From a virus (lineage: Duplodnaviria; Caudoviricetes), in the IMG/VR virus record IMGVR_UViG_3300021295_000001: DNA of 64,000 nucleotides; one strand, given 5' to 3'. This document shows positions 39,889-58,781 of this stretch, piece by piece (within the stretch, counting starts at the first letter, position 1; every line of letters begins with the position of its first letter). A model generated the notes under the pieces. It did no database searches, was not told the DNA's origin, and worked only from the letters and a program-made list of their open reading frames with translations. The translations under genes were made by a program, and so were the position numbers.

Positions 39889-41421
39889 ATGACGAACGAG
39901 ACCATAATGGAGACTCTGAAGGTACAGCCCCTTTCCGAGGAGGAAAAGCAGGCCCGCCACATCCTGAAAAGGCTGACTGGGCCCATCGCGTCCTGCAAGG
40001 AAGGCACGAGGAACGGCAGGAAGTACAACCGCGAACTCTGGGAGAAGGCGCTCAACGACGACATCTTCAAGGAGAAGATTGACACGAAGAGCCTGTTCCT
40101 GGAACTCGGCCACCCCGACAGGGACGAGACCGACATGAACTGCGCCTGCGCGTGCATCCCCGAGATGCCCAAGATAATCGACGGCGACCTATACGCGGTG
40201 GTCGACGTACTGGACACCCCAGTCGGAAGGTTGCTAAACACCCTAATCGACTACGGGTTCCAGCCTGGCATCAGTTCCCGTGGCACGGGTGACGTCATAG
40301 AGGGTTACGACGGCGAGTCCGAAGTCGACCCCGAGACGTTCTTCCTGGAAACGTGGGACATAGTCCAGACACCCGCCCTCAAGAAGGCCAGGCTGGCCGT
40401 CACCGAGGGTCTGGAAAAGGAGAAGGCCGACCTCAACGTCGCGTTGAGGGAAAGCCTCAAATCGTCCTCGGAGGAGGACAAGAAGATGATGACGGAGGCG
40501 CTCAGGAACGTGGGCATCGACGTCGTCGAAGAAGAGAAGGTATCAGACGCCGTCGAGGCGGAGGATATAAAGGAAAGCGAATCCGAAGGGTCCGAAAAGG
40601 AAAGCAAGGAAGCCGTGGATGACGGGACCGACGCGTTGATTAAGGGACTCCAGGAGGCGCTCAAGGCCAAAGCGGAATTGGAGGCGACCGTCAAATCGCT
40701 TCGGGAGAGCCTTGCAGTCAGCGATGCTAAGGTGGGCAAACTCGAGGAGGAGAACGGAAGGTGCAAGGGCACAATCGTGCGACTCACCAAACTGTCCGAG
40801 GGTTCCAAGGAATCGGCCAAGAGGATAGCCTCACTAGAGGAGGAACTGAAACGCAAGACCGAGAGCATCAACATGCTCACGAAGGTGACCGCCGAAAGCA
40901 AGGCAAGGATGGACGACGAGAACCGTTCCCTGCGCGAATCCGCGAAACGCGGGTCCGACGAACTCGGGAGACTGAGGAGGGAACTCAAGGAATCCAAAGA
41001 GGCCAACGAGCAGAAGGTACGCTCACTGGAGGAATCGGCGCGCAAGGCTGGCGCCAGGTCCGCGAAGGAAATAGCCGAATTGAAATCACGCCTGGACAAA
41101 TCTTCCAAACTCGCTGAGGGTTACAGGAAGATGGCGAACGACACCATGTCGAGCCTAATCTCGACCAAAGCCGTCCAGTTGGGCGTGTCCGAGAACGACA
41201 TCAGGTCGCGCCTCGGCGAATCCTACACGTTGCAGGACGTGGAGGACGTGTGCGAGTCCCTAAGCGAGTACTCGCTCAACCTCAGCAGGTTGCCTTTCCG
41301 CCTGGACGGGAACGCCACCGTAAGAATCAAGGAATCCAAGATGCCGACCGCCAAGCCGACCCCGTCGTATTACGACGACGACATCGACGAGCACTCGTTG
41401 CGCATCGCGGGCCTCGATTGA
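39889..41421 (+). CDS. Prohead protease (T4 gp21-like) fused to coiled-coil scaffold
   Basis: NGRKY, ELGHP, DTP.G, GISSRGTG, WDIV..P; long E/K-rich coiled-coil C-terminus with many LxE sites. Confidence 0.88.
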   Translation: MTNETIMETLKVQPLSEEEKQARHILKRLTGPIASCKEGTRNGRKYNRELWEKALNDDIFKEKIDTKSLFLELGHPDRDETDMNCACACIPEMPKIIDGDLYAVVDVLDTPVGRLLNTLIDYGFQPGISSRGTGDVIEGYDGESEVDPETFFLETWDIVQTPALKKARLAVTEGLEKEKADLNVALRESLKSSSEEDKKMMTEALRNVGIDVVEEEKVSDAVEAEDIKESESEGSEKESKEAVDDGTDALIKGLQEALKAKAELEATVKSLRESLAVSDAKVGKLEEENGRCKGTIVRLTKLSEGSKESAKRIASLEEELKRKTESINMLTKVTAESKARMDDENRSLRESAKRGSDELGRLRRELKESKEANEQKVRSLEESARKAGARSAKEIAELKSRLDKSSKLAEGYRKMANDTMSSLISTKAVQLGVSENDIRSRLGESYTLQDVEDVCESLSEYSLNLSRLPFRLDGNATVRIKESKMPTAKPTPSYYDDDIDEHSLRIAGLD

Positions 41422-41470: not shown

Positions 41471-44082
41471 GTGAAACTAAACGCCAAACAACTCACGGAA
41501 GCCTACGCCAAGCGCCTAAGCCTCACCGAGGCGGCTTACGCCAAGGCCCACAACGGCGCCACCCTTCCCGAGAACCTAAAGAACGCCACCGCTCAGTTAA
41601 TCTCCAACGCGAACACCCTCTTCAGGGAGTCCTTCGCCAACTCGACTGGAACCCAGTTGGGTGACATGGGCACCTTCAAGAAGTTCACCTTGGACATCAC
41701 CCAGGTCGCGCTCCCCAACCTCATCGCCCCCGAACTCGTCATCGTCCGTCCGATGGCCTCCCGCACTGGATTTTAACCGAATAGAATCCCTTTTGTAGCA
41801 ATACAATAGCAAACAACCTCGTTAATTGCTGGAAAACCCGATATGGACAATCAGCAGCCAAGCCCCGTGTATCAGTAAGCGGGGAAGGTTCAACGACTAT
41901 CGAAAGCGTAATCGGCGAGAAAAACGCCGATGAGGAAGCGAGTAGAGTAGGGCTTCGGTCCGAAAGACGAGGCAACCGAATGAGGACAAACCAAGTTCGG
42001 CTGATAATATAGTCTGAGCACCATGGTAACATGGTGAGCCTGACATTACTGGTAAATGACACAATGCCACGTGGCGAGCCATAACTCGCATCCGCACATG
42101 CGTGGCGAATACATAGAACGCTTTATGGAGAGTTAAGATGAAGAGAAAACTGAAGTACTTGGATTCAAGTTGCATCGACGACATCGTGAACATGTATGAG
42201 GTCGAGCGAAAGACCCTGAGAGATTGCGGAAGGAAATACGGGCTGTCCCGACCTTCCGTGAAAAGGCTCCTCGAAGAAAACGGGACCCACATCAGGACCA
42301 ACAGCGAGTCACACAGAAAACATATCACTGACGCCGAAATCGCGGAAACCGTGGAATGGTACGAATCGGGCCACACGCTGGACGAATGCTCCGAGAAAAC
42401 GGGGCTCAAGCGAAGCACCACGTATAATATACTGAAGAACCACACGAAAACGCGAAATACTTCCGAATACACGAAGGGCAAGAGGAGGGATGAGGCCACG
42501 AGGGCCAAAATCTCCAAGTCCAAAATGGGACACCCAGTGTCGGAGAAAGTGAGGCAACGCATGAGGGACTACAACAGAAACCTCGACAAAAAGACCATCC
42601 AGATAAAACTCACGAAGGCATGGTTGACCAAGAAACTCCACGGAACGTGCAACACCTCGAAACCTGAGGAGGAACTGTACCAAAGGTTGCTAAAGGAAAA
42701 CGTCAACAAGACGATACTGAGGCAATACAAGGACAGCGAAAGATACCCGTTCTACTGCGACTTCTACATAGTGGAAGACGACAAATTCATCGAACTCAAC
42801 GCGCATTGGTCGCACGGCGGAAAGCCCTACGACGAAAACGACGAGGAGTGCCAAAAGAAACTGGCGCTGTGGCGAGAGAAGGCCAAGACCTCGGCGTTCT
42901 ACGCGCAAGCCATAAAGGTGTGGACCGAAACGGACGTGCTCAAAGCAAAGACGGCCAAGGAACACAACCTCAACTACGAAGTCATTTACTAAGAATGCTT
43001 ACGAATAACAAAACCTGATTCAGTACATCCAGTTCGTCGCTGGCTCCAACAAGGGCGGAATCCAACGCGGTGCCGTCTTCAACGACCCCTTCCACCTCGG
43101 CCCCATGACCGATGACAGGGTCGACTACACCGCCCAAGCCATCGCCGAGAACGTCGAACTCGACGCCCAAGGCAAGGCCACCCTCGCCTGGGCTCCCATC
43201 AGCGAGTCCTTCACCCCCGTCGTCGTCGGCCAGCCCTCCGCGGTCGTCACCGTCGTCGACGCCGCCACTGGCGAAATCTCCGTCGCTGGCGCCTCTGGCA
43301 CCGCCATCAAGGTCAAGTACCTCTATGACCAGGCCATCATCCCCGCCAACGACATCCCGACCCTCAACATGAGGGTAGAGGGCATCGCCCTCGAGGCCAA
43401 GCCCCGTCGCATCGCCATCTACTTCGACCAGATGGCCGCCTTCCAAGCGAAGACCGAGATGGGCATCGACCTCGGCGACGTCCTCGCCAAGCAGGCCGTC
43501 TCCGAACTCTCCTACGAAATCGACACCGAAATCGTGAAGTTGCTCGCCGAATCCGCCCCGACCGACGTCACCCTCCAGTTCAACAAGAGGATTCCCGTCG
43601 GCATCTCCATGGAACAGCACTACGAGGCCTTCGCCGAGACCATCGAGCGCGCTTCCCAAATCATCTACGACAGGACCCAGCGCTACCACGCCAACTACAT
43701 GGTCTGCGCGTCCAACGTCAAGCCCCTCCTCGCCCTCGTGAGGGGTTGGAAGGCCACTGGCGAAGCGACCCGCAACGGCCCGTACCTCGCTGGCACCCTC
43801 AACGGCCTCAAGGTCTTCGTCTCCCCCGCCATCGAGCCCAACAAGTGGTTCGTGGGCTTCAACGGCGACGACCTCATGACCTCGGCGGCCATCTACGCCC
43901 CCTATATGCTCATCGCCCCGACCGCGCTCCTCAACTTCGCGGATGGTGGCAACAGCCAGGGCTTTATGACCCTTTACGACCTAAAACTCCTCAACGACAA
44001 ACTCCTCGTCGCTGGTGAAATCATCAACGCCAAGGACGTCGAAGCGGTCCAGGTCGTCCCGACCGAAGACGTCGGCGAATAA
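41471..44082 (+). CDS. Major capsid protein (T4 gp23-like), spliced: exon 1 41471-41773, exon 2 43018-44082 (455 aa)
   Basis: LPNLIA.ELV.V.PM...TGF|IQY, EAKPRRI, EL..EID.EI, YAPY; highly biased codons. Confidence 0.9.
41774..43017 (+). mobile_element. Group I intron
   Basis: P1 GGATTT/GAATCC with U.G at the splice site; P AATTGCTGGAAA, Q AATCAGCAG, R TTCAACGACTA, S ATATAGTCT; terminal G43017; in-frame exon join. Confidence 0.92.
42138..42992 (+). CDS. Intron-encoded homing endonuclease (Vsr/DUF559-like, EDxHD-type) with HTH and NUMOD3-like repeats
   Basis: SKPEE..Y, RYPFYCDFY, FIELNAHWSHG; lies downstream of the S element (P9 region). Confidence 0.75.
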   Translation: MKRKLKYLDSSCIDDIVNMYEVERKTLRDCGRKYGLSRPSVKRLLEENGTHIRTNSESHRKHITDAEIAETVEWYESGHTLDECSEKTGLKRSTTYNILKNHTKTRNTSEYTKGKRRDEATRAKISKSKMGHPVSEKVRQRMRDYNRNLDKKTIQIKLTKAWLTKKLHGTCNTSKPEEELYQRLLKENVNKTILRQYKDSERYPFYCDFYIVEDDKFIELNAHWSHGGKPYDENDEECQKKLALWREKAKTSAFYAQAIKVWTETDVLKAKTAKEHNLNYEVIY

Positions 44083-45160: not shown

Positions 45161-45228
45161 ACCACATCGCTTTTCTTTTTGCTAAATTAACTGTATAATA
45201 TCATTGGGACTTATTGGGAGATGAAACC

Positions 45229-46821
45229 ATGGACGTTGTGAATAAGGTCGGTCAGAAGGCGCGCGAGAAGGCGAACGCCGATTTGCTCGAGGCGATGTCG
45301 GGGCGCAGGGACGAGTTGTTCTCGTTCTACGATTCGCATTCGTACAAGGAGACGCTGGACGAGTTCGGCATACCGAGTTACAAGAGGCTCAGCGCGATAC
45401 TGAAGGCTCTTGGGTACGATTTCTCGCGGAAGAAGGGGAACAGCGTGCTCAAGGGGAAGCCGTCCCCGCGTAGCCACGAGAGTTACGTCGCTGGAGGCAG
45501 GAAGAGTTCCGAGACGCAAAGGGACGCGTGGGCGGGGAAAACGGACGAAGAGAAGGGGGAATGGTCCAAGAAGATGGCCGATTCCCATTCGTCCGAGGAG
45601 TACAAAGCGAGGAAATCGAAGGCGCAGAAGGAATGGTACGCATCGCTTTCCGACGATGACAAGAAGGAATACGCCCGCGTGCGTGGCGAAGGCTCCAAGG
45701 CTTGGTGGGATTCACTGACCGAGGACGAGAAGGCGGAGCAGGTGGCGAAGCACATGGAGGCTGGCGCTGGGTGGAACCACGAGAGGATAAGGCAAACCCT
45801 GCGCGATAGATACGGGGTTTCCAACGTGTCGCAAGTACCTTCCGTGAGCGCCAAGGCCGTCGAGGGGATGAGGAAGACGTGCCTTGAGAAATACGGGGTT
45901 GAGTGGAATTGCCAACTCGAGCAATGCAAGACGGCCATTGGGGCCAAATCGTCGAACACGAAGCCGAACGTGGAGTTCGCCACGCTTTTGGATTCCATGG
46001 GTATTGCGTACGAAAGGGAATTCAACCTCGGGAAATACATATACGACTTCAAGGTGGGCGACACGTTGGTCGAAATCAACCCGACCCCGACCCACAATTC
46101 CACGTGGAACCCCTTCGGAGGGGAACCGCTCGACAAACTCTACCACAAGGACAAACTGGCCAACGCCGAGAAGAACGGCTACAGGTGCGTCATGGTGTGG
46201 GACTGGGACGTGCCAGAGAAGGTGGCGTGGTCCCTGAAGGACGCCGAGGTCGTGTACGCCAGGAAATGCGAGGTCAGGGAAATCGGTATGGCGGAATGCT
46301 CCGAGTTCGTCAACAGGCACCATTTCCAGAACGACGCCCGTTGCTCCGTGCGACTGGGCCTGTTCCACGAAGGCGAGTTGGTAAGCGTGATGACGTTCGG
46401 GAAGCCGAGGTACAACGGGAACCACGAGTGGGAACTGATTAGGTACTGTTCGTCCAAGAAGGTAATCGGAGGGGCGAGCAAACTGTTCAGGCGCTTCGTG
46501 GCCGACCACGCGCCGAGGAGCATAGTAAGTTATTGCGACAGGTCCAAGTTCAAGGGTGACCTATACCCGAAACTCGGGTTCGCGCTGACGAAGAGGGGTA
46601 AGCCGTCGAAGCATTGGCACAGCATAAGGACTGGGGAGCACTACACGGACAACCTGCTCAGGCAACAGGGGTTCTCGAGGCTCGTGCACAGGACGGACGC
46701 GTCCAACGAGGATTTGGCGACGTCCGACAACGCGACCCTCATGCGCGAGGAGGGGTTCGCCGAGGTATGGGACTGCGGTCAGGACGTGTACGTTTGGGAA
46801 AACGGCACAAGCGACCGTTGA
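45229..46821 (+). CDS. Hef-like endonuclease with DUF559-like domain and GNAT-like C-terminal domain
   Basis: T.LEKYGV, YDF....LVEIN...H; YARKC...HHFQ...VMTFGKPR...WELIRYC...GGASKLF...SYCD. Confidence 0.65.
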   Translation: MDVVNKVGQKAREKANADLLEAMSGRRDELFSFYDSHSYKETLDEFGIPSYKRLSAILKALGYDFSRKKGNSVLKGKPSPRSHESYVAGGRKSSETQRDAWAGKTDEEKGEWSKKMADSHSSEEYKARKSKAQKEWYASLSDDDKKEYARVRGEGSKAWWDSLTEDEKAEQVAKHMEAGAGWNHERIRQTLRDRYGVSNVSQVPSVSAKAVEGMRKTCLEKYGVEWNCQLEQCKTAIGAKSSNTKPNVEFATLLDSMGIAYEREFNLGKYIYDFKVGDTLVEINPTPTHNSTWNPFGGEPLDKLYHKDKLANAEKNGYRCVMVWDWDVPEKVAWSLKDAEVVYARKCEVREIGMAECSEFVNRHHFQNDARCSVRLGLFHEGELVSVMTFGKPRYNGNHEWELIRYCSSKKVIGGASKLFRRFVADHAPRSIVSYCDRSKFKGDLYPKLGFALTKRGKPSKHWHSIRTGEHYTDNLLRQQGFSRLVHRTDASNEDLATSDNATLMREEGFAEVWDCGQDVYVWENGTSDR

Positions 46822-56407: not shown

Positions 56408-56433
56408 TATATAAGGGCATGGAGGAAAAACCA

Positions 56434-56748
56434 ATGGCAAAAGAAGAATTCGACGCAATCAACAACTCGCAATACAAGGAAGCAATCGCCAAGTACTTCG
56501 ATTACTCGTTCGACTTCGCCTTCCTGGACATCGTCGCCAGAATCATCGACAGGGTCGAGGACTTCTCAGACACCGAGGAAATCTACGAGGCGATGGACTC
56601 CGCGCTAATCTACACCGAGGACCAGTGGAGGGTCATGATGCATTATCAAACCCCGAGCGAGGCCGACTTCGGGACCGCCTGCGAATACCTTCTGTCTGAC
56701 GTGGAGGCCATCTGCGAGCACATCGCGGAAGCCTCCGACGAGGCCTGA
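56434..56748 (+). CDS. Small acidic early protein
   Basis: TTGACA-17-TAATAT (56382-56410); GGAGG RBS. Confidence 0.7.
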   Translation: MAKEEFDAINNSQYKEAIAKYFDYSFDFAFLDIVARIIDRVEDFSDTEEIYEAMDSALIYTEDQWRVMMHYQTPSEADFGTACEYLLSDVEAICEHIAEASDEA

Positions 56749-56794
56749 TTCACGAAACCGCAAAAACGCGCGAATCGTAATGCTAAATTATAAG

Positions 56795-58000
56795 CCCCGC
56801 CCAAAAGGCGTGAAAACGGCGCCCCGCACCCAGTGTTCGGGAACGCAGTATAATAAGGGTGTCCGACGCGGATTCGTCCGCCTCGGGTCCGATTCGGATT
56901 CGTCCGATTCGGGACTGACGATGACCCAACGTCGTTAACCAGGGTCGTGACGGCGGAACCCCATCAACGGGGTCCGCACGTCGAACTGAGCGGTGCATCG
57001 CTCGAAGCGGGTCGGCCCGCGAACAAACTTGCACACCCCATCGGGAGGGTCGACTCCTTCCGTATGAACGCGGGGATATGACGGGACCCCGTAGGCGCGG
57101 TCAAAACCGCGGTTCCCAGACGGCTTCGTCTGGGAGGGGAAGGAAAACCCCGAAAACCAAAGCGCCGAGCGATAACCACGTTAGAGCCGTGGGCTCTCCG
57201 CATCCAGATACGGTACGGGGAGCGCTGGTTGTAGCGCGTCTCGGCACTCACGACCGCCACGTCGTTAAACTGCCAACGGTGGCTTCGGGTTCGATTCCCG
57301 AACCGTCCTGATAGACAATATCTGGGCGGTGAAGTATGGGCAGGTTGCCACAGTCCACCGTTAAACGTCTTGGAGGCGAGACGTTAAATCCCTTCCCGAG
57401 CAGCAAGGCACTCGTTAAAAGAGTCTTTCAGTACAGCGTGGGCAGGAGTTAGTCCCGTTCCTTATAACCGTGGAACGCACGAAAGAGGTCGCCAACATCG
57501 GCGACCGCAAGTAATGGTCGGCAATGATTCGCCGATGGGCAAAACACCCTTAATGTGCCCTCACCCTTTAACGGAACATGGATAGGCTCGGGAGGACCCG
57601 CGCGGGGCCATTGAAGGACCTTCTGGTTGAAAGGCGGACGGACCGCGCAATTAAGGTGGGTTTTCGGGAGAATAGGAACCAGCGAGAACATCCCGACGTC
57701 CTAATGTGTCAGACCAACGCGGTGCACCGCTAACCTGACCGCATTGGGACGTTAAACATCCTAACGCGACGCCCAGCAATGGGCTATGCCAAGGGACCGC
57801 ATCGCGGTGGGTATGGCCACGACGCACCGACGGACCCCGTATTCGGGGACCGACTCGGCAGTCATAATGTGTGGCCCTTGGCCCACCCAATGGCGCACGC
57901 GGTTCGGCGAGTCGCGATTCTGGGAAACGTGCGCCACAACGGTTGCTCCCCCGTGGCAGTCAACCGACAGACGGGTCCACAAAAACCCTTCGAAGGTAAG
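56795..58000 (+). ncRNA. Candidate large structured non-coding RNA (about 1.2 kb)
   Basis: No credible ORF; dense hairpins, tandem pseudoknots and a T-arm; flanked by late motif 56781 and terminator 57998-58024. Confidence 0.65.
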
Positions 58001-58024
58001 CGCCCAAAAGGCGCTTTTCCTTTT
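57998..58024 (+). terminator. Rho-independent terminator
   Basis: AAGCGCC-caaaa-GGCGCTT TTCCTTTT. Confidence 0.8.
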
Positions 58025-58070
58025 GTTTGGTGCTAAATTCACTGATATTGCCCTAGGGTTATTGTTCAGC

Positions 58071-58781
58071 ATGGATTTGAAGGATTACATCTCAAACATA
58101 AAACTCGAATTGACTGGCGGTTTGCTTGAGTTGGAGATTGACGACGAAGTGATAGCGAAGGTCGTCAACCAATCGCTCAGGGAGGTCCAAAGGTACATAG
58201 ACGAATCCAGGTTCATAGAGGTACCTTTCGCCAGTTGCATCGACATCGCTGGGTTCAAATGCTCGGCGATAAAGAAGGTGTACAGGGTAAGCCCCATAGG
58301 GGGCGCGGTGTCTGGCTCGTCCAGCGCCATAGACCCGATGTACGCGCAGACGTGGGCCCTGTACGGGATAAACAACGCGACGTACAACATAACGCAATTC
58401 GCCTACAACTACGCGTCGTACAACACCGTCCTCCAAATAAGGAACTCCCTGTCGACAGACCTGGCGTTCAGGATGGACAAGCAGGGTGAGAAACTGTACG
58501 TCAACGTATCTGGCAACTACCCCGAGAGAATCGTGATTGAGTACATCCCCATATTCGAGGACGTTTCCGAGGTCAAGGACGCCTATTGGATTGACATACT
58601 CCAGAGGCTGTCCCTCGCCATGACGAAGAGGATTCTGGGCAGGGTCAGGACCAGGTTCACCCAATCCAACGCCCTTTGGCAACAGGACGGCGAGACCATG
58701 CTCGAGGAGGGCAACAGGGAACTGTCCGAGATAAGGGAGATACTGAGGACCAATTCCTCGTTGTTCTACCCGATAGATTGA
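58071..58781 (+). CDS. Neck / head-completion protein (T4 gp13-like)
   Basis: IKLEL.G....LE.DD, W.....LA..K..LG..R..F, DG..M..EG..EL; late motif at 58031. Confidence 0.75.
   Translation: MDLKDYISNIKLELTGGLLELEIDDEVIAKVVNQSLREVQRYIDESRFIEVPFASCIDIAGFKCSAIKKVYRVSPIGGAVSGSSSAIDPMYAQTWALYGINNATYNITQFAYNYASYNTVLQIRNSLSTDLAFRMDKQGEKLYVNVSGNYPERIVIEYIPIFEDVSEVKDAYWIDILQRLSLAMTKRILGRVRTRFTQSNALWQQDGETMLEEGNRELSEIREILRTNSSLFYPID

Follow-up and report, generated by a model that had tools for sequence, protein, structure and literature searches.

A probable large structured RNA gene, outside the catalogued families, upstream of the gp13-like neck gene of a rumen phage

Few natural RNAs are known that exceed 500 nt and have an elaborate conserved fold; the handful includes GOLLD, ROOL, OLE, HEARO and raiA. 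Two of these, both of them phage-borne, were reportedly shown in recent work to form RNA-only cages. GOLLD is an RNA of more than 800 nt from phages and prophages, with a conserved part, a poorly conserved 5' region and many pseudoknots and kissing loops; its level rises late during lysis, and both GOLLD and ROOL often lie near tRNA genes (PMC12286853). ROOL, which is of rumen origin and carried by phages, is an ornate RNA of ~600 nt with multiple pseudoknots and no known protein partner (PMC12286853).

The DNA analysed here (the window, 64 kb in all) comes from an uncultured rumen phage of ~150 kb: a 109-aa protein of the window is also encoded on a contig of 150,563 nt, and the closest relative is a viral contig of 149 kb that is rated 99% complete. 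An earlier note on this DNA had described a pseudoknot-rich non-coding RNA of about 1.2 kb, with its own promoter and terminator, and had likened it to GOLLD and ROOL; all the sequence features that it listed are present where it placed them. The best explanation of the locus, and one that we consider probable as a whole, is that positions 56797-58026 of the + strand constitute a stand-alone gene for a structured non-coding RNA of ~1.2 kb, whose family lies outside Rfam; this judgement takes in the transcription, the fold and the late trans-acting role proposed below.

The gene-free stretch and its transcription signals

The longest ORF-free stretch of the window (56749-58070) is situated between a 109-aa ORF (56419-56748) and a gene for a T4 gp13-like neck protein, which served as the synteny anchor for the comparisons below (Table 1). 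Further upstream are large BspA-type genes and other structural or cargo genes. The predicted RNA gene is flanked by head-module genes on one side and the neck gene on the other. The statement that this is the longest non-coding gap of the window is borne out, as 1037 nt are free of any ORF of at least 105 aa and the next longest such gap measures 463 nt; in the last ~285 nt before gp13 the only overlap is with the gp13 frame, spuriously extended upstream. Each of the six frames contains at least six stop codons, of two or all three kinds, both in the window and in the related loci L001, L013 and L019, so that reassignment of a single stop opens no frame; a protein-coding gene under an alternative genetic code was rejected on this basis. 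The spurious short ORFs of the gap match no family in Pfam or PHROGs at E <= 0.01 (the best hit is a PHROG, E 0.076), and the indels between lineages, such as an expansion of 59 nt, are not multiples of three.

The gap also differs from its surroundings in composition and folding. Its GC content is 0.58-0.62 against 0.50-0.55 in the flanks, and its minimum free energy (MFE) per nt amounts to -0.45 kcal/mol, that of the adjacent 1.2 kb of coding sequence to -0.32. Relative to dinucleotide shuffles the folding z-score is -6.05 for the 5' half (56850-57395) and -3.67 for the 3' half (57396-58020); the nested MFE of the homologue in L013 has a z-score of only -0.56.

The 64 kb contain 13 copies of the motif TGCTAAATT, all of them on the + strand, where 0.26 would be expected; most copies lie 15-60 nt ahead of a start codon, often directly after a T-run. 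The copy at 56781 is followed by the structured region instead of an ORF. This distribution suggests that TGCTAAATT is probably a phage-specific, late promoter. At the other end of the unit, the gap contains a sole + strand intrinsic terminator, and L001 and L013 likewise have exactly one + strand terminator each, at the corresponding point ahead of TGCTAAATT and gp13. The claim of an own promoter and terminator is upheld to the extent that the enrichment of the motif is statistically real and the terminator recurs at the same place in these relatives, the motif itself being a putative promoter. In the mechanism that we propose, the phage's own, probably late, transcription machinery would start at the TGCTAAATT copy at 56781 and would stop at the intrinsic terminator (57998-58026), ahead of the separate promoter motif of gp13.

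If it acted in cis, the element could serve the upstream gene as a long 3' UTR or stabiliser, or serve gp13 as a regulatory leader. The element always lies immediately upstream of gp13, and in L001 and L013 it directly follows a small ORF of 111-113 aa and lacks its own perfect promoter motif, so that it could be a 3' UTR in those lineages. However, a terminator and a separate TGCTAAATT stand between the element and gp13 in every lineage, the window copy has its own motif and no upstream ORF of the 111-113-aa family, and a pseudoknotted core of ~300 nt far exceeds the needs of a UTR stabiliser; we judge the cis-acting reading to be quite unlikely.

Table 1. Features of the proposed RNA gene and its immediate surroundings (positions in the window)
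Feature	Positions	Strand	Basis or remark
TGCTAAATT promoter-like motif heading the RNA unit	56781..56789	+	enriched in the window (see text); putative promoter
Proposed ~1.2-kb non-coding transcript	56797..58026	+	5' end approximate; no ORF, fold z-scores, terminator, no Rfam match
5' hairpin CGCC-CAAAA-GGCG	56798..56810	+	exact 13-nt direct repeat of the terminator stem-loop at 58001-58013
26-nt tandem repeat, 2.3 copies, with twin UUCG-loop hairpins	56861..56920	+	Tandem Repeats Finder; 5' domain of window lineage only
Drawable H-type pseudoknot GACG/CGTC + GACCC/GGGTC, linker GTTAACCA	56917..56946	+	read from sequence
Pseudoknot module CGAC..GTCG-UUAAAC..GTGGC	57250..57283	+	S1 stem and UUAAAC recur upstream of the core in L001 (5211-5240) and L013 (2368-2400)
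T-loop-like hairpin TTCGGG-TTCGATT-CCCGAA	57284..57302	+	in sequence; not kept in L001 or L013
Drawable H-type pseudoknot CGTCT/AGACG + GGAGG/CTTCC, linker TTAAATCC	57366..57395	+	recovered by generic scan (57366-57394); window-specific
Conserved core	57397..57696	+	common to L001, L010, L011 and L013; BLAST and nhmmer E 1e-61 to 1e-85; alignment A8
P1 hairpin CGAG/CTCG, invariant loop CAGCAAGGCA, A-rich linker, possible S2 AAGG/CUUU	57397..57428	+	compensated changes
P2 hairpin CGUUCC-UUAUAACCGU-GGAACG	57456..57477	+	three different perfect 6-bp stems
59-nt expansion with two hairpins (57487-57506, 57518-57535)	57479..57537	+	window-specific; absent from L001 and L013
Nearly invariant block GCAAAACACCCUUAAUGUGCCCUCACCC	57539..57566	+	25/28 columns invariant across 5 sequences
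P3 (NACCU/GGGUN) enclosing P5 hairpin GCRG-ACRGN-CYGC (57634-57646)	57617..57662	+	one compensated pair per helix; weak
Pseudoknot CUGGUU (57623-57628) / AACCAG (57677-57682)	57623..57682	+	two compensated positions in 6-bp helix
P6 hairpin CGGGA...UCCCG, loop holding a pseudoknot strand	57665..57695	+	three different stems at the same position
3' UUAAAC module (GGGACGUUAAACAUCC)	57745..57765	+	counterpart in L001 and L013 is CGUCGGCACGAAGACGUUAAACCU
Intrinsic terminator AAGCGCC-CAAAA-GGCGCUU, then T-run	57998..58026	+	sole + strand terminator in the gap
TGCTAAATT motif of the next unit (gp13)	58031..58039	+	kept before gp13 in L001, L013, L098, L018, L019 and L099
T4 gp13-like neck protein gene	58071..58781	+	downstream neighbour; homologues carry PF26809 Phage_T4_gp13; PHROG head-tail adaptor match

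A conserved core with compensated helices

To place the gap in a comparative setting we collected the homologues of gp13 together with their upstream DNA; the relatives are rumen or gut metagenome assemblies, going by their sample names. A core of ~300 nt is present upstream of the gp13-like gene in three other metagenomic lineages, namely L001 (the same contig as L005, L015 and L021), the close variants L010 and L011, and L013. The gp13 proteins of these lineages are 77-78% identical to that of the window, and their gene-free gaps measure 660-850 nt. Within the core are invariant blocks of 24-36 nt, AAAAGAGUCUUUCAGUACAGCGUG and GCAAAACACCCU.AAUGU.C.CUCACCC, even though the neighbouring gp13 proteins are only 75-78% identical. 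Outside it, the first ~450 nt were seen only in the window and in one near-identical strain fragment (L102); their place in L001 and L013 is taken by the lysine-rich ORF of 111-113 aa, which is absent from the whole window according to tblastn, so that the 5' domain is not a decayed copy of that ORF. The 3' ~260 nt have no diverged homologues. Hence a non-coding unit of ~1.2 kb, as described in the earlier note, is supported, but what the relatives have in common with it is limited to the ~300 nt of the core and two small UUAAAC modules.

Pattern scans with the conserved blocks (four over viral contigs, one over metagenome contigs and one over genome contigs) produced no further members; they returned only the 149-kb contig again and one candidate, L014, which was discarded as a chance match on a GC-rich, unrelated contig. 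A blastn search against 50,697 phage records gave no match, and R1, a covariance model of the 3' domain, recovered only the five known sequences from 563 kb of loci of gp13 relatives.

Closely related strains give a finer view. L100 and L101 (96% identical) cover the 3' half and L102 (95%) the 5' end; as all three derive from other samples, an assembly artefact is excluded. The RNA of L100 and L101 departs from that of the window at 3.9% of its positions, as against 8.4% at gp13 third codon positions. The changes that fall in local hairpins convert C·G to U·G, A·U to G·U and one GNRA loop to another (GCAA to GCGA); the second hairpin of the 59-nt expansion, for instance, has C·G replaced by U·G in L100. 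These strain-level changes are small in number and consistent with selection on the predicted RNA fold.

Eight helices were defined on alignment A8, over which 95.8% of the cells of the whole core model are paired, the same sequences having been used both to derive the model and to count the pairs. Across three diverged lineages 14 pairs are changed on both sides, against 5.6 +/- 1.7 in shuffles (none of 500 reaching 14) and 0-3 in slid controls. The P1 stem reads CGAG/CUCG, UGG/CCA or CAGG/CCUG in the three lineages, and the possible S2 pairing next to it changes a G·U to a G·C pair in strain L100. The stem of P2 is replaced by ACGCAC/GUGCGU in L001 and by GCAUCG/CGAUGC in L013, amounting to compensation at 5/6 pairs around a conserved loop; the palindromic UUAUAA of this loop was considered as a dimerisation signal and set aside, L013 having UGAUAA. 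P6 similarly has GAUGCG/CGCAUC in L001 and UCGCGAA/UUCGCGA in L013, and the two strands of the pseudoknot become CCGAUU/AAUCGG in L001, L010 and L011. Further candidate pairings are a loop-loop contact (kissing loop) of 57468-71 with 57638-41, with one compensation, and P7, with none.

As a control, a blind enumeration of helices was carried out on coding alignments of gp13 and of downstream genes from the same phages. This yielded 3-10 helices of 4 bp with one compensation per ~320 columns, against 7 in the core, whereas helices with two compensations numbered 0 in three coding controls. Since single compensations arise by chance in coding sequence, P3, P5 and the kissing loop were downgraded, and P3, P5, P7 and the loop-loop contact are to be taken as plausible but unproven. 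P1, P2, P6 and the pseudoknot are supported as the strong helices of the predicted fold. As to the covariation in homologues that the earlier note had asked for, four helices, including one pseudoknot, keep pairing through full compensation as counted by the procedure above, three diverged lineages being too few for a statistic of the R-scape type.

The model contains invariant U·G and G·U pairs, one of the U·G pairs being in the P3/P5 region, and these, along with the terminators and the promoter motif, indicate the + strand as the one that would be transcribed. They also bear on the reading that the locus works at the level of DNA, be it as a hot spot of recombination, as what is left of a mobile insertion or as a site of replication or packaging, in which case folding would be incidental. 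The terminator stem-loop and the 5' hairpin (58001 and 56798) form an exact 13-nt direct repeat that flanks nearly the whole unit, has only these two exact copies in the 64 kb and would be expected by chance with a probability of ~0.01; moreover, the content of the locus differs greatly among close relatives. Yet the compensated stems hold U·G pairs, which would be A·C on the opposite strand, the strains change G·C to G·U, and the promoter motif and terminator are conserved, and we regard a DNA-level element as very improbable. The transcript of the preferred RNA gene would instead fold into a core of ~300 nt locked by the pseudoknot, with lineage-specific hairpins and H-type pseudoknots with A-rich linkers arranged around it, and the peripheral modules would include the ~450-nt 5' domain found in the window and the near-identical strain fragment.

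Peripheral modules and the extent of the unit

The periphery of the RNA is rich in local elements. In the 5' domain the tandem repeat, whose region is 95% identical in strain fragment L102, forms twin GGA-UUCG-UCC hairpins at 56868-56881 and 56894-56907, and perfect stems are seen at 57116-57135 (CCCAGACG/CGTCTGGG) and, in the expansion, at 57487-57506 (GGTCGCC/GGCGACC). In all three lineages the core has a small UUAAAC module on either side; the stems of the upstream one (57250..57283) are invariant and thus offer no covariation.

Four compact H-type pseudoknots had been proposed from the sequence of the window. All of them can be drawn, but comparative support extends to the one in the core (57397-57428) alone. 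A crude generic pseudoknot scan finds 7 in the gap against 2.9 +/- 1.6 in shuffles, of which 1/200 reaches 7, and this excess gives the small pseudoknots modest statistical support; taken individually, most of them are weakly supported. The heptamer CGTTAAA, proposed as a recurrent linker, occurs at 57263, 57359, 57382, 57413 and 57750 as had been noted, and it is indeed clustered: the 64 kb contain 7 copies against 8.6 expected, and 6/7 of these fall within the 1.3-kb gap, where ~0.16 would be expected. The heptamer is not conserved in the relatives, though. At the core copy (57413) these have CAGAAAAA or CTGTAAAA (in RNA spelling CUGUAAAA), and even the 96%-identical strain L100 has CGATAAA (RNA CGAUAAA). 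What is kept at this position is, on such a comparison, a predicted A-rich linker such as lies along the groove in H-type pseudoknots, and not the heptamer as such.

The T-loop-like hairpin, which had been likened to the T-arm of a tRNA, is present as described; it is, however, specific to the window lineage, and ARAGORN calls neither a tRNA nor a tmRNA anywhere in the 64-kb window. A tRNA-like element would need an acceptor stem along with the T-arm, and a tmRNA a tag ORF as well; what is present is a lone T-loop-like hairpin that is not kept in the relatives, and both identities were dismissed.

Some of these peripheral features could be taken to mean that the gap encodes two or more separate RNAs, a 5' RNA of the window lineage (~56797-57243) and a conserved RNA (~57244-58026), either processed out of one precursor or started internally. 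No counterpart of the 5' ~450 nt exists in L001 and L013, which have the ORF of 111-113 aa instead, a TATAAT hexamer is found at 56849-56854, and the T-loop-like hairpin could be a processing signal. On the other hand, a scan for sigma-70 promoters gives no call at 56849, and neither an internal + strand terminator nor an internal copy of TGCTAAATT was found within the gap. Division into separate RNAs appears unlikely to us, and one unit of ~1.2 kb, reaching from TGCTAAATT to the terminator, offers the simplest reading of the signals in the sequence.

Known RNA families, the gp13-upstream locus and described large RNAs

A search of the whole window with Rfam 15 at gathering thresholds returned nothing in the gap, and at E <= 10 with permissive filters the gap gave only chance matches, without any large-RNA family, tRNA, tmRNA or Y-RNA-like element. 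The same library does detect a group I intron (83 bits) at 41764-42036 of the window, which served as a positive control. At gathering thresholds the gaps of 19 related loci are empty except for tRNAs in L071 and L089, and the loci of 3 relatives searched at E <= 5 with permissive filters gave nothing in their gaps. Group I and group II introns, RNase P, known ribozymes and riboswitches were excluded as identities in that no Rfam covariance model matched, and membership in ROOL (RF03087) or GOLLD (RF01998) was rejected likewise, with no score reaching the gathering thresholds and no match appearing even at E <= 10. The earlier judgement that the RNA could not be assigned to a known family therefore agrees with the Rfam check, which was negative for ROOL, GOLLD, tmRNA, RNase P and introns, and the RNA most likely belongs to a new family that matches no catalogued one.

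It might still be argued that this is a very divergent ROOL or GOLLD that the Rfam models miss. Its size, phage context and rumen origin, a conserved core joined to a variable 5' region, and the tRNAs at the same locus in L071 and L089 all recall those RNAs (PMC12286853). The searches argue against it at every level, namely at E <= 10 for the window, at E <= 5 for the relatives and at gathering thresholds for the 19 loci, and we consider such a relationship extremely improbable. The resemblance to GOLLD and ROOL drawn in the earlier note holds as an analogy, whereas membership, which was tested directly, does not.

In the wider relatives the place upstream of gp13 is occupied in different ways. 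A group of GC-poor phages (L018, L019, L020, L071 and L099), whose gp13 is ~60% identical to that of the window, has gene-free units of 850-2400 nt in the same place. Those of L018, L019 and L099 begin with TGCTAAATT and have a second TGCTAAATT before gp13, and in L019 and L099 a hairpin followed by a T-run can be seen by eye before gp13. These units share conserved islands among themselves, and no similarity to the window RNA was detectable, either with an nhmmer profile run against the window or with the R1 model; even a run of R1 with its filters off left the GC-poor group and L098, L012 and L096 without a hit. The lineage of these last three has only 413 nt at the locus, without the core, and others have no gap there at all. 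The window RNA lies in a phage context; the tRNA genes mentioned above lie within the gp13-upstream gap of L071 and L089, and the 64-kb window has none. Judged from this spread of contents, the gp13-upstream locus is a variable site for predicted RNAs, and its variability and patchy occupation among close relatives point to an accessory role in interaction with the host rather than an essential part in virion assembly.

By analogy with what has been proposed for GOLLD and ROOL, the folded RNA of the window might form a particle that acts in trans late in infection. Such a particle could be a scaffold or a cage, or it could bind a host or phage factor and so act as a decoy. On a broader proposal, to which we give about even weight, the RNA would be the first member of a new class of large phage RNA with a pseudoknot-locked core of ~300 nt and exchangeable modules, and the gp13-upstream position in this family of T4-like rumen/gut phages of ~150 kb would be a dedicated, fast-evolving 'RNA locus' that holds unrelated large RNAs and tRNAs according to lineage, frames each large unit with the same late promoter motif and terminator, and has an accessory function in an arms race. 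The candidate would add to the few large phage RNAs known, and a further one unrelated to these would be a new subject both for structural work and for the question of what such RNAs do. Its assets are a defined promoter motif, a terminator, a compact pseudoknotted core and a locus with other large RNAs in related phages, and its patchy distribution among near relatives affords natural comparisons of phages with and without it.

Among described systems, type III antitoxin RNAs (ToxI-like) consist of arrays of pseudoknot units of ~30-36 nt with A-rich segments, and are recognised as tandem near-identical repeats of 34-45 nt beside a gene for a ToxN/AbiQ-type toxin; phages can carry mimics of them. 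Unlike these, the window RNA has no tandem array, its only repeat being that of 26 nt in 2.3 copies, the UUAAA linker of its core is not kept in the relatives, and for the five neighbouring window genes and the small ORF of the relatives PADLOC reports no defence protein family at E <= 0.001, no match below E 0.005 and no toxin family. A type III antitoxin RNA was rejected on this evidence.

The pRNA of phi29 is a phage-encoded structured RNA of ~120-174 nt that makes loop-loop contacts, works with head and connector proteins and is essential. The window RNA resembles it in that its gene lies between head-module genes and a neck gene, and differs in its length of 1.2 kb and in being absent or replaced in close relatives; T4-type packaging, to our knowledge, requires no RNA.

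With respect to the two large phage RNAs, the window RNA is set apart from ROOL by its different blocks and helices, by a length about twice as great and by the lack of a model match at E <= 10; it resembles ROOL in being phage-borne and pseudoknotted, with relatives from rumen and gut metagenomes. From GOLLD it differs in lacking both a match to the Rfam model and a tRNA in the window, and in having its conserved part at the centre of the RNA and not at the 3' end. What it has in common with GOLLD is a conserved core, a variable 5' domain, a probable late promoter and, in relatives, tRNAs at the same locus.

Promoter-like motif and the gp13-upstream locus

The motif TGCTAAATT is strongly over-represented in the window, with 13 sites from 19098 to 58031, all on the + strand, which mostly lie a short way 5' of a gene and often immediately 3' of a terminator-like T-run. 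The copy preceding gp13, the gene of the T4 gp13-like neck protein, is kept even in distant GC-poor relatives, and the motif is a candidate for the late promoter of this phage group. In relatives with a GC content of about 0.33 the same gp13-upstream locus holds gene-free units of 850–2400 nt. TGCTAAATT opens the unit in three of these loci (L018, L019 and L099), all of which carry a second copy before gp13, and conserved islands are common to these units and that of L071. No similarity between the GC-poor units and the window's RNA was detectable; the L019 unit has a folding z of -2.7. These units probably belong to at least one additional family of large RNAs.

The lineage typified by L098, with a 75% identical gp13, has a GC-rich gap containing a terminator. 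The covariance model for the 3' domain of the RNA's core found no match in this gap. A AATAATGGTGGG stretch 3' of a hairpin there resembles part of that domain.

Features in the window and related loci
Feature	Location	Details
Group I intron	window 41764-42036	Rfam RF00028, 83 bits
HNH/homing-endonuclease-like ORF	window 45214-46821	535 aa
Direct repeat CGCCCAAAAGGCG	window 56798-56810 and 58001-58013	exact, 13 nt
Gene-free gap, L098 lineage	L098:382-795 (with L012:1-302, L096:2891-3103)	413 nt
Gene-free unit upstream of gp13, GC-poor relatives	L018:2586-5000; L019:4150-5000; L099:4333-6723; L071:1131-3500	
Lysine/glutamate-rich protein	L001:4818-5159; L013:1996-2331; L098:47-382; L099:4001-4333	110-113 aa
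tRNA genes in gp13-upstream gap	L071:3308-3373; L089:2323-2408; L089:2418-2501	

Terminal repeat, group I intron and homing-endonuclease-like ORF

CGCCCAAAAGGCG forms a hairpin at each end of the RNA unit, and its two exact copies are the only ones in the 64 kb (chance about 0.01); the repeat may be a trace of cassette insertion or duplication. Elsewhere in the window, the group I intron lies between ORFs 39889-41421 and 42138-42992, and probably interrupts a single gene. The homing-endonuclease-like ORF includes a weak Mom-like region and has TGCTAAATT upstream.

Genes in and beside the RNA locus

Several lineages, the GC-poor group among them, carry the gene of a lysine/glutamate-rich protein next to the RNA locus, on its upstream side. 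This protein, a possible RNA partner, matches no known family and was not found anywhere in the 64-kb window. The tRNA genes in the gp13-upstream gaps of L071 and L089 recall the tRNA neighbourhood described for the large phage-borne RNAs GOLLD and ROOL.
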